NCBI RefSeq assembly: GCF_002854065.1 | Contig: NZ_CP024147.1 | Length of the DNA: 64,000 nucleotides | Direction: 5' to 3' (one strand) | Source of the DNA: Escherichia coli | Lineage (GTDB): Bacteria > Pseudomonadota > Gammaproteobacteria > Enterobacterales > Enterobacteriaceae | Shown: positions 1,509 to 2,472 of the stretch, in pieces | How the letters are laid out: the number at the start of each line of letters is the position of its first letter | Position numbering within the stretch: position 1 is the first letter of the stretch | Program-made: the position numbers and the translations under genes | The notes under the pieces: generated by a model | Told to the model about the DNA's origin: nothing | Database searches by the model: none | What the model saw: the letters and a program-made list of their open reading frames with translations, nothing else

Positions 1509-1874
1509 ATGGACTGGTATCTGAAAGTACTAAAAAATTATGTCGGTTTCCGGGGTCGTGCGCGGCGCAAAGAGTACTGGATGTTTATTCTGGTCAACAT
1601 CATCTTTACGTTCGTGCTGGGGCTGCTGGATAAAATGTTAGGCTGGCAACGCGCTGGTGGCGAAGGCATCCTGACGACAATCTACGGTATTCTGGTGTTT
1701 TTACCGTGGTGGGCAGTTCAGTTCCGCCGCCTGCACGACACCGACCGCTCGGCGTGGTGGGCACTGCTATTCTTAATCCCGTTTATCGGCTGGCTTATTA
1801 TCATCGTCTTTAACTGCCAGGCGGGTACGCCAGGCGAAAACCGCTTTGGACCTGATCCAAAACTGGAACCTTAA
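1509..1874 (+). CDS. yhaH: DUF805-family inner membrane protein
   Basis: Track ORF 1488..1874; start trimmed to MDWYLKVLKNYVGF giving 121 aa; hydrophobic segments and the RRLHDTDRS motif shared with yhaI. Confidence 0.88.
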   Translation: MDWYLKVLKNYVGFRGRARRKEYWMFILVNIIFTFVLGLLDKMLGWQRAGGEGILTTIYGILVFLPWWAVQFRRLHDTDRSAWWALLFLIPFIGWLIIIVFNCQAGTPGENRFGPDPKLEP

Positions 1875-1887
1875 AACAAATCTGCTC

Positions 1888-1916
1888 GCCGGATGTCTGA
1901 CTCATCCGGCTTTTAT
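1888..1916 (+). terminator. Intrinsic terminator downstream of yhaH
   Basis: GC-rich hairpin CGCCGGATG...CATCCGGC (1888..1910) followed by TTTTAT. Confidence 0.55.
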
Positions 1917-2115
1917 CATCATGTTGATGAATGAATAATTTACTAATGTTTATTTAAAATATTTCAATGTCGTTATATAAATTACCTATAAAAAATAACC
2001 ATGTATTTATCTTAAATATCAAAACCTTTATAACATCCGAAAAAGAAAGATACGAATAGCATTTACACAATACCCGGAATAGACTTTCGTCACTTTTAAT
2101 TAAAGGGATGTTTTT

Positions 2116-2472
2116 ATGCAGTGGTATTTATCCGTATTAAAAAATTATGTTGGTTTCTCTGGTCGCGCACGTCGTAAAGAGTACTGGATGTTTACTCTGA
2201 TTAACGCCATCGTCGGCGCTATTATCAATGTCATTCAATTGATTTTAGGTCTGGAGCTTCCATATCTGTCTATGCTTTATTTGCTGGCAACCTTCCTTCC
2301 CGTCCTTGCGCTTGCTATCCGTCGCTTACACGATACCGACCGTTCAGGTGCCTGGGCCTTGCTCTTTTTTGTTCCGTTTATTGGTTGGCTCGTGCTTCTG
2401 GTTTTTTTCTGCACAGAAGGTACTTCTGGCAGCAATCGTTACGGAAACGATCCGAAGTTTGGTTCAAATTAA
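2116..2472 (+). CDS. yhaI: DUF805-family inner membrane protein, paralog of yhaH
   Basis: 118-aa ORF; N-terminus MQWYLSVLKNYVGFSGRARRKEYWMF parallels yhaH. Confidence 0.9.
   Translation: MQWYLSVLKNYVGFSGRARRKEYWMFTLINAIVGAIINVIQLILGLELPYLSMLYLLATFLPVLALAIRRLHDTDRSGAWALLFFVPFIGWLVLLVFFCTEGTSGSNRYGNDPKFGSN

Follow-up and report, generated by a model that had tools for sequence, protein, structure and literature searches.

A pair of DUF805 genes lies near the start of the stretch of Escherichia coli DNA analysed here (64,000 nucleotides of contig NZ_CP024147.1, which we call the window). A sequence-only reading of the window had described two adjacent same-strand ORFs of 121 and 118 residues, named them yhaH and yhaI and placed both in the DUF805 family. 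This description holds: the ORFs occupy 1509-1874 and 2116-2472, and both encode full-length DUF805 proteins (Pfam PF05656; 120.9 bits for YhaH and 111.3 bits for YhaI against a gathering cut-off of 25.7, covering model positions 1-111 and 1-110 of 111). RefSeq E. coli genomes use the same two names with the product 'DUF805 domain-containing protein', and UniProt YHAI_ECOLI is identical to the YhaI product here. The ORF list also holds a longer yhaH frame at 1488-1874 (128 aa); the annotated ATG at 1509 gives 121 aa. The locus is the already annotated yhaH-yhaI, and the gene pair as such is already known; what is new here is how a conserved core copy contrasts with a polymorphic accessory one, together with the variable size of the array at this locus. 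The features are as follows:

1433-1461, plus strand: predicted yhaH promoter-like element (TTTACT at 1433-1438, a 17-nt spacer, TATTCT at 1456-1461)
1470-1508, plus strand: yhaH 5'UTR, CTTTAAAAACAAGTGATTGA...TTGAGG, including the ribosome-binding site
1509-1874, plus strand: yhaH, 121 aa, ATG at 1509; DUF805 inner-membrane protein, the conserved core copy
1870-2521, plus strand: yhaI cassette, about 650 nt, 37% GC against 51% for the window; about 40 nt stand in its place in CFT073-type E. coli, E. marmotae and Escherichia sp. E2562
1875-2115, plus strand: yhaH-yhaI spacer, 28% GC; presumed yhaI promoter and regulatory region
1888-1914, plus strand: terminator-like hairpin and T-run after yhaH (hairpin 1888-1910, 8 pairs of which 6 are G-C, then TTTTATC)
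1939-1953, minus strand: CpxR-box-like site, ATAAACATTAGTAAA, one mismatch to GTAAA-N5-GTAAA; a candidate lead only
2116-2472, plus strand: yhaI, 118 aa, ATG start; DUF805 inner-membrane protein, the accessory copy, allele A
2261-2420, plus strand: hyperdivergent block between alleles A and B, 160 nt, matching strains EC93 and HCM-24C-3 at 69% of nucleotides, against 94-100% in the flanks
2402-2408, plus strand: T7 homopolymer in yhaI, a recurrent frameshift site in both directions
2483-2505, plus strand: terminator-like hairpin and T-run after yhaI (GGGGCGA-TATT-TCGCCCC at 2483-2500, then TTTTTATT), facing the yhaJ 3' end

Aligned with BLASTP, YhaH and YhaI share 66 of 118 residues (56%; 69% positives, one 4-residue gap, E 7e-48), an identity far beyond chance and above that of unrelated proteins. 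The similarity is spread along the proteins much as had been proposed, with a common N-terminal segment, a shared pair of motifs and a divergent middle: 23 of 26 positions match over residues 1-26 (xWYLxVLKNYVGFxGRARRKEYWMF), RRLHDTDRS and PFIGWL are present in each protein, and hand counts on the BLASTP alignment give 11 matches in 46 over YhaH residues 27-72 (24% identity for this middle third) and 32 in 46 over residues 73-118.

The AlphaFold2 model of YhaH (pLDDT 95.5) has an N-terminal helix and three hydrophobic helices (helices at 20-44, 54-77 and 82-103, the last broken at P91), and the hydropathy profile agrees with a three-helix membrane protein. Thirteen columns are invariant in 91 homologues from many phyla (G16, R17, R20, E22, W24, P66, R73, R74, H76, D77, P91, N111 and G114); they make up the motifs GRxxRxE.W before TM1 and RRxHD after TM2, a proline in each of TM2 and TM3, and N..G in the tail. 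All 13 are kept in YhaH and YhaI, which show no difference at the level of the PF05656 family. Positive charges are biased in the same direction in both proteins, with 10 K+R on the N-terminus and loop 2 versus 4 on the other side in YhaH, and 8 versus 2 in YhaI, which predicts an N-in/C-out orientation for both. The invariant Arg, Glu, His and Asp residues beside the membrane helices may form a conserved polar site, which the positive-inside rule would place in the cytoplasm. The paralogues appear to differ mainly in TM1, loop 1 and TM2, and on this basis we tentatively suggest that they share a core activity and make different contacts across the membrane; the differing face of YhaH might be what YhaH-using phages target. 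In a published GFP screen YhaH-GFP was membrane-localised and was mislocalised without YidC. The C-terminal GFP fusion was fluorescent, and the screen's authors treat GFP tags as cytoplasmic, an observation at odds with the predicted N-in/C-out orientation.

Searches of structures, sequence profiles, defence systems and gene neighbourhoods gave no clue to a biochemical function. No solved structural relative of the DUF805 fold was found, PADLOC returned no match for YhaH and for YhaI nothing better than a generic 4TM effector model at E 0.075, and NCBIfam matches were all sub-threshold. When neighbouring ORFs were clustered over 80 loci of many phyla, no conserved partner emerged; the top clusters were spurious ORFs that overlap the DUF805 gene or Streptomyces-only synteny.

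Each gene has its own AT-rich upstream region and its own terminator hairpin, as the sequence-only reading had stated: GC content is 28% in the spacer and 37.5% at 1401-1600 upstream of yhaH, against 51% for the window, and the hairpins, each followed by a T-run, fold at -15.0 kcal/mol (z -4.0) after yhaH and -16.3 kcal/mol (z -4.9) after yhaI, with 0 of 200 shuffles folding as well in either case. The two genes would thereby form separate transcription units, each with an AT-rich upstream region and an intrinsic terminator. A consensus promoter scan of the yhaH-yhaI region returned 0 sites, with no consensus sigma-70 site in the spacer; the yhaH promoter-like element matches consensus at 8 of 12 positions and is absent from the scan list because this is one short of the 9/12 cut-off. 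E. marmotae, Salmonella, Klebsiella and three Citrobacter species keep both of its hexamers at the same distance, and the 5'UTR is near-invariant from Escherichia to Klebsiella and Citrobacter. A promoter at this position would be consistent with the -43 start of a Salmonella yhaH reporter fusion, whose region from -43 to +45 confers repression by the small RNA SdsR (PMC5137417); the YhaH protein level climbs towards stationary phase (PMC5137417). For the CpxR-box-like site at 1939-1953 the evidence is weak, since the window holds 8 such sites against 3.5 expected by chance. Rfam at a permissive threshold over 1100-2700 gave nothing within or between yhaH and yhaI; its only two sub-threshold matches both fall in the yqjG-yhaH spacer (isrD-like at 1216-1260, naRNA4/REP-like at 1265-1301).

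The pair occupies a slot between yqjG and yhaJ whose content differs among enteric bacteria. One DUF805 gene is present in Salmonella, Klebsiella, E. marmotae, Escherichia sp. E2562, C. farmeri and E. coli CFT073, two in most E. coli, C. rodentium and C. amalonaticus, and four in Superficieibacter; Intestinirhabdus has only a YhaI-type gene. These contexts were found by exact-protein look-ups; a contig search with YhaI gave no Escherichia, Salmonella or Klebsiella loci. The YhaH orthologues in the slot are 84-90% identical at the protein level in Salmonella, Klebsiella and Citrobacter, and the yhaH-then-yhaI order recurs in the same slot of Citrobacter rodentium, C. amalonaticus and Superficieibacter, the last of which keeps it within its four-gene array. 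A hairpin of the form GGGGC...GCCCC, homologous to the yhaI terminator, lies 3' of the YhaI-like gene in both Citrobacter species, and their spacer, similar in size and composition, shares the TTATCTTAAATA island (window 2007-2018) and the ribosome-binding region with E. coli; homology between the E. coli and Citrobacter cassettes thus extends to the terminators and to islands in the spacer. The slot in Enterobacteriaceae thus looks like a variable-copy DUF805 array that would evolve by copy gain and loss, with yhaH as its conserved core copy and yhaI as an accessory copy on a low-GC cassette of about 650 nt.

The limits of that cassette were set by alignment to CFT073 and by comparison of junctions. 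CFT073-type E. coli, E. marmotae and Escherichia sp. E2562 have in common a clean single-gene junction whose spacer is 33 nt long and holds one hairpin, and no repeats or mobile-element scars were seen at the cassette junctions in the CFT073 alignment. GC3 is 0.445 for yhaI versus 0.615 for yhaH, and between E. coli and Citrobacter dN is 0.31-0.33 for yhaI versus 0.09 for yhaH, a rate about 3.5 times higher. No close yhaI copy on a true plasmid or phage was found in the plasmid and phage collections searched: the plasmid-collection matches (84.7-85.6%) are three 4.8-4.9-Mb records, chromosome-sized and presumably mislabelled, and one 354-kb E. coli record, and the phage-collection matches are distant. 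IS1 insertions and deletions occur at the yhaI locus in some genomes.

Within E. coli, 4,342 of 5,421 matching complete genomes cover at least 80% of the locus and 2,106 contain an 87-mer specific to allele A. From the coverage counts and a few inspected genomes, the species is split roughly 39/41/20% into allele A, allele B and absence of the gene. yhaI is missing from about 20% of E. coli genomes (the CFT073 type), as it is from Salmonella, Klebsiella and E. marmotae, and it does not belong to the core genome of E. coli, which calls for caution in its use as a marker gene or in pangenome comparisons. The two alleles differ chiefly in the hyperdivergent block: over codons 49-102, dS is 1.66 and dN 0.21 (dN/dS about 0.12), against a dS of 0.08 for the rest of yhaI. 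An origin of the block by gene conversion from yhaH was rejected, since the block is only 51-54% identical to yhaH in both alleles. Taken together, the yhaI cassette is optional, polymorphic and of atypical composition, and yhaI is no fixed twin of yhaH, a point that the sequence-only reading had missed.

The T7 run adds a further layer of variation. Its T6 variant encodes a 139-aa product found on 345 contigs and its T8 variant a 131-aa product found on 190; these are protein-level contig counts, in place of a count of T6, T7 and T8 by exact 87-mers in complete genomes that was dropped, as a common SNP confounds it and only 76 genomes match the window's 87-mer exactly. Each intact allele is present on at least 1,000 contigs. 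The run has the form expected of a phase-variable gene, an in-frame homopolymer that varies by +1 and by -1 in the population; phase-variable tracts are usually longer than 7. T8 is found in at least nine complete genomes, and the T8 frameshifts look like inherited lineage mutations rather than switching, since the listed T8 genomes all carry the same extra SNP.

The composition of the cassette may also bear on its expression. Ler is an H-NS antagonist, and accessory genes that H-NS silences and Ler de-represses resemble yhaI in lying in AT-rich DNA (28% GC in the spacer, 37% in the cassette), although yhaI has no recognisable island or mobile element around it. Ler activates yhaI 36-fold in EHEC (PMC3891560), and CpxR overproduction raises it 3.2-fold by array and 40-fold by Q-PCR (PMC2731931). 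yhaI would thus be poorly expressed normally and turned on by Ler or by CpxR overproduction, and, given the 28% GC of the spacer, its induction would most likely reflect relief of H-NS silencing.

We consider it probable that yhaH and yhaI are two ancient DUF805 paralogues, small inner-membrane proteins that each have their own transcription unit within a variable-copy array. The sequence-only reading had proposed an old tandem duplication, and the age stands: synonymous divergence has reached saturation (pS 0.77), aligned codons are 58% identical in nucleotides, and the order is shared across genera. A duplication within E. coli recent enough to leave the copies largely redundant would fit the same-strand adjacency and the protein identity, but it is refuted by the synonymous saturation and the cross-genus synteny; with a middle third so divergent and regulators reported to differ (SdsR acting on yhaH, Ler and CpxR on yhaI), we give it virtually no credence. 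The origin in place is the weaker part of the claim. The two genes do not keep the residual nucleotide or flank similarity of repeat units, and their upstream regions are unrelated. Tandem duplication recurs in DUF805: the adjacent copies of Sulfitobacter are reciprocally closest to each other, and in Hafnia, as for two of the three Polaribacter copies, the tandem partner comes first or second among the relatives of each. In-situ duplication is the simplest reading of the E. coli pair. It is no firmer than plausible because the neighbour-joining tree, built on only 118 alignment columns, does not resolve the two as sisters: an exclusive YhaH+YhaI clade appears in 18% of 200 bootstraps (YhaH clade 100%, YhaI-like clade 63%), and in the base tree the two groups are neighbours with alphaproteobacterial sequences intruding. 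That same low sister support, together with the low GC and GC3 of the cassette, the clean junction shared by CFT073-type E. coli, E. marmotae and Escherichia sp. E2562, the single copy in Salmonella and Klebsiella, and the 62% identity of YhaI to an Exiguobacterium protein against 56% to YhaH, would suit a yhaI of foreign descent, a DUF805 cassette inserted next to the resident yhaH in the E. coli lineage or later re-imported through recombination in the conserved yhaH/yhaJ flanks. The allele A/B block, at a genus-level dS between flanks at least 97% identical, likewise points to import of foreign yhaI DNA by recombination. However, the order, slot, spacer architecture and terminator recur in Citrobacter and Superficieibacter, so the pair is older than E. 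coli; all YhaI-like proteins found are enterobacterial and group together, and neither a close mobile copy nor junction scars were seen. We regard foreign descent as possible but rather unlikely.

Two further readings concern what the pair does rather than where it came from. The SMR (EmrE-type) and CrcB (Fluc) families include paired genes for small membrane proteins of opposite topology. Like them, yhaH and yhaI are adjacent paralogous genes for small multi-helix proteins, and small size, an odd number of helices, the tandem layout and the recurrence of tandem pairs in other taxa could suggest an antiparallel heterodimer of this kind (dual topology of CrcB has been noted; PMC3225971). In contrast to such pairs, YhaH and YhaI have the same predicted orientation from a strong charge bias in the same direction, which leads us to reject this reading as highly improbable; the genes also have separate terminators and different regulation in the literature, and most genomes, including those of relatives, usually have a single copy. 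The frequent absence of yhaI, frameshift variants on hundreds of contigs and the IS1 insertions and deletions could instead mark a gene without function, a remnant in decay that is being lost. This we judge improbable, as even the divergent block is under purifying selection, none of the 13 residues invariant in the family is missing, both intact alleles are widespread at the contig counts given above, transcription is strongly inducible in published work, and YhaI-like genes persist in other genera, in Intestinirhabdus as the sole copy.

A 2024 survey still counts yhaH and yhaI among the uncharacterised E. coli genes (PMC11551758). Members of DUF805, a widespread family without known function, share 50-60% identity between phyla, and the locus offers several handles on the family: a natural series of genotypes, in which the copy number is one, two or four and yhaI has two alleles as well as frameshifted forms; a confident structure model that places the 13 invariant residues; and a genetically tractable phenotype in YhaH-dependent phages.

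Inner-membrane proteins such as ManYZ for lambda and PtsG for HK97 are host factors that phages need after adsorption. The Stephanstirmvirinae phages PhiWec188 and PhiWec190 need inner-membrane YhaH besides an LPS receptor, according to their authors; a yhaH mutant of E. coli TK001 resists PhiWec188/190, and complementation restores sensitivity. YhaH is thus like ManYZ and PtsG in being an inner-membrane protein required for infection, but it is no transporter subunit of known function, and phage dependence has been reported for YhaH alone. One could speculate that the DUF805 slot by yhaJ is a locus of phage-driven diversity, that the yhaI polymorphism is balanced and alters susceptibility, and that DUF805 'morons' of prophages act as decoys or superinfection-exclusion factors; we hold this to be distinctly unlikely as it stands. 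If true, YhaH-type proteins would be a phage crossing or docking route at the inner membrane, and yhaI variants would be exchanged between lineages by recombination. The phage 'moron' membrane family phrog_12855 carries a DUF805 domain and resembles both proteins (E 5e-22 for YhaH and 8e-28 for YhaI, matched over about 70-194 of the profile); at 333 positions the profile is much longer than YhaH or YhaI, whose chromosomal genes lie outside prophage. Stx phages 75/02 and POCJ13 carry an unannotated DUF805-like ORF that is 36% identical.

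Region 1200-2600 of the window is matched in 5,421 of 5,426 complete E. coli genomes, two of which are 100% identical to it, and carries the RefSeq labels yqjG, yhaH, yhaI and yhaJ; the window is E. coli chromosome. The yhaH/yhaI pair consists of already known genes, with the YhaI product an exact match of UniProt YHAI_ECOLI, and is in itself an ordinary finding. What our follow-up adds is that yhaI is an optional, recombining, frameshift-prone copy, that the locus holds a DUF805 array of varying size, and that the phage phenotype of YhaH offers a possible handle for studying the DUF805 family. 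The features are as follows, all in window coordinates.

1433-1461, promoter-like TTTACT-17-TATTCT 5' of yhaH, kept from Escherichia to Klebsiella
1509-1874, yhaH, 121 aa counted from the annotated ATG
1888-1910, hairpin and T-run 3' of yhaH, folding energy -15.0 kcal/mol
2116-2472, yhaI, same strand as yhaH, 118 aa
2402-2408, T7 run within yhaI, for which T6 and T8 variants exist
2483-2500, hairpin and T-run 3' of yhaI, folding energy -16.3 kcal/mol

The sequence-only reading of the two genes as DUF805 paralogs is borne out: the proteins are 56% identical with a single 4-residue gap (E 7e-48), both span the whole Pfam DUF805 model, scoring 120.9 and 111.3 bits where the cut-off is 25.7, and the gene names agree with RefSeq. 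The shared N-terminal part and differing middle that it described are evident from identities counted on the alignment (23/26 in the N-terminus and 11/46 in the middle, with 32/46 in the C-terminal part), and each gene does have the terminator hairpin assigned to it, since a hairpin with T-run follows both and 0 of 200 shuffles folds equally well in either case.

The locus is covered to at least 80% in only 4,342 of the 5,421 matching genomes. The segment bearing yhaI (the yhaI cassette, 1870-2521; 37% GC vs 51% for the window) is missing from roughly 1,079 of the 5,421. In CFT073, ~40 nt with a single hairpin stand in place of 1870-2521, and YhaH ends in ...KLEQD vs ...KLEP. Since E. marmotae and Escherichia sp. 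E2562 have the CFT073 junction too, the cassette polymorphism extends across species boundaries. The shared junction (L081, the CFT073 locus, 2160-2205; L089, E. marmotae; L094, E2562) is 33 nt with a single hairpin; yqjG of CFT073 (L081 529-1517) is annotated as a frameshifted pseudogene.

Genomes that carry yhaI have one of two alleles, A (that of the window) and B. EC93 and HCM-24C-3, which carry allele B, match the window at 94-100% identity outside 2261-2420 and at 69% inside it, a sharply bounded 160-nt block (loci L091 and L092 compared). Between A and B, codons 49-102 have dS 1.66 and dN 0.21, vs dS 0.08 in the remaining gene; the block divergence equals that of yhaH between E. coli and Salmonella. 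We rejected copying of the block from yhaH, to which it is 51-54% identical. The block has the look of either yhaI DNA taken up from a foreign source or a balanced polymorphism of great age; a mixed A and B protein exists (P0017). From the 2,106 genomes that contain an 87-mer specific to allele A and the 4,342/5,421 coverage count, the rough split is 39% allele A, ~41% allele B and ~20% without the cassette, the latter two values coming from subtraction and an evenly spaced genome listing rather than genome-by-genome typing.

The T6 variant of yhaI (345 contigs) encodes a 139-aa product and the T8 variant (190 contigs, several complete genomes among them) a 131-aa product, and both lose the conserved C-terminal tail. 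Several E. coli strains have yhaH broken by IS1, and in TBU0218_10-1CC an IS1 takes the place of both genes; the IS1 events lie at 1111-2253 of locus L082 and 2288-2985 of locus L083, and in genome matches H8, H9 and H15. Despite this turnover, yhaI is under purifying selection: dN/dS is ~0.12 in the divergent block, and YhaI retains every invariant DUF805 residue.

The two copies differ in constraint. YhaH of E. coli is 84-90% identical to that of Salmonella, Klebsiella and Citrobacter (dN ~0.09) vs 60-68% for YhaI-like proteins of other genera (dN 0.31-0.33), and GC3 is 0.615 in yhaH vs 0.445 in yhaI. The 5'UTR of yhaH is kept from Escherichia to Klebsiella, and the DNA upstream of yhaI shows scant conservation between genera. 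We read the content of the slot between yqjG and yhaJ in relatives from exact-protein look-ups.

DUF805 copies in the yqjG-yhaJ slot
0 copies, IS1 in place of both genes: E. coli TBU0218_10-1CC
1 copy, YhaH type: Salmonella, Klebsiella, E. marmotae, Escherichia sp. E2562, Citrobacter farmeri, E. coli CFT073
1 copy, YhaI type only: Intestinirhabdus alba (L096)
2 copies, YhaH then YhaI-like: most E. coli, C. rodentium, C. amalonaticus
4 copies, YhaH and YhaI-like in the middle in the same order: Superficieibacter sp. 1612_C1

Judging by these contents, the slot behaves like a small tandem array in which copies are gained and lost. The Superficieibacter array (L097 1269-3331) lies upstream of yhaJ; it opens with a divergent copy, continues with a YhaH orthologue and a YhaI-like copy, and closes with another divergent copy of 144 aa. 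Upstream of the array, the gene called is other than yqjG.

The sequence-only reading also proposed an old tandem duplication. Its "old" holds: yhaH and yhaI are 58% identical over 117 aligned codons with saturated synonymous sites (pS 0.77), leaving no trace of a recent event, and the pair occurs in other genera. In Citrobacter, yhaH is followed by a hairpin and by an AT-rich spacer of ~220 nt (30% GC) bearing a TTATCTTAAATA island; the ribosome-binding region resembles that of E. coli, and a GGGGC...GCCCC hairpin homologous to the E. coli one stands after the second gene. Being built like the E. coli cassette, the Citrobacter cassettes indicate that the pair predates the Escherichia-Citrobacter split. 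Duplication in place is plausible and unproven. A neighbour-joining tree of 65 sequences over 118 columns, with 200 bootstraps, supports the enterobacterial YhaH clade at 100% and the YhaI-like clade at 63%, with an exclusive YhaH and YhaI clade in only 18% of bootstraps, and the top YhaI match outside Escherichia in the genome collection, Citrobacter (63%) aside, is an Exiguobacterium protein at 62% (YhaH: 56%). DUF805 proteins keep 50-60% identity across phyla with 13 invariant columns, and because the family is so constrained, 118 residues are too few to fix the branching order. In Sulfitobacter the nearest relative of each tandem copy is its partner, and in Hafnia, as for two of three Polaribacter copies, the partner comes first or second; local duplication thus recurs in the family, and we infer it as the simplest origin of yhaH/yhaI too.

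Built on 91 homologues, the AlphaFold2 model of YhaH is of high confidence (pLDDT 95.5, pTM 0.85). It has helices at 2-10, 20-44, 54-77 and 82-89 plus 93-103, the last of these (the third hydrophobic helix) being broken at invariant P91, and its tail is ordered. Residues invariant in the family (G16, R17, R20, E22, W24, P66, R73, R74, H76, D77, P91, N111, G114) are placed at helix ends and in the tail. Most differences between YhaH and YhaI fall within TM1, loop 1 and TM2. In all enterobacterial YhaH orthologues compared the loop reads LGWQRAGGEG, and in YhaI it is four residues shorter. The positive-inside rule predicts a cytoplasmic N-terminus and RRLHD loop in both proteins, and with the two oriented alike an opposite-topology pair is ruled out. 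YhaH-GFP localises to the membrane and, on YidC depletion, collects in foci (PMC3225971). The topology of YhaH residues 82-121 (window 1752-1871) is subject to conflicting evidence: charge bias predicts a C-terminus outside the cytoplasm, whereas C-terminal YhaH-GFP fluoresces at the membrane and the screen's authors take GFP tags as cytoplasmic. Tentatively, one membrane face might hold a shared conserved polar site and the opposite face might be paralogue-specific, in which case YhaH-dependent phages would perhaps exploit the latter.

A yhaH frameshift/stop mutant of E. coli TK001 resists the Stephanstirmvirinae phages PhiWec188 and PhiWec190 and regains sensitivity with wild-type yhaH (bioRxiv 10.1101/2024.11.29.626071; PMC12695924). 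The phage family profile phrog_12855 includes the DUF805 domain. Stx phages 75/02 and POCJ13 have an unannotated DUF805-like ORF antisense to nin-region genes, a placement typical of a phage 'moron'; that of the Shigella Stx phage 75/02 (L100 2501-2845, record 16349-16693) is 36% identical to YhaI and sits between ant and a hypothetical gene. Defence-system models gave no match, and no neighbour gene conserved across phyla was found.

The yhaH-yhaI spacer is 28% GC, and Ler is known mainly as an H-NS antagonist. Because of both, yhaI may be silenced by H-NS, and this putative silencing is the likely basis of its activation by Ler. That activation is 36-fold in EHEC (PMC3891560). CpxR overproduction raises yhaH 1.9-fold, while for yhaI arrays show a 3.2-fold and Q-PCR a 40-fold rise (PMC2731931), and Salmonella yhaH is repressed by the small RNA SdsR via the -43..+45 region, its protein level climbing towards stationary phase (PMC5137417). 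Both genes still count as uncharacterised in a 2024 survey (PMC11551758). Two overlapping CpxR-box-like sites, with one mismatch each, lie in the yhaJ-yhaK intergenic region (3494-3518). The yqjG-yhaH spacer has sub-threshold Rfam matches (isrD-like, E 0.044; naRNA4, E 0.4) and REP-like palindromes at 1216-1301 and 1336-1370, and is 91-100% identical between strains, with a 10-nt indel in CFT073.
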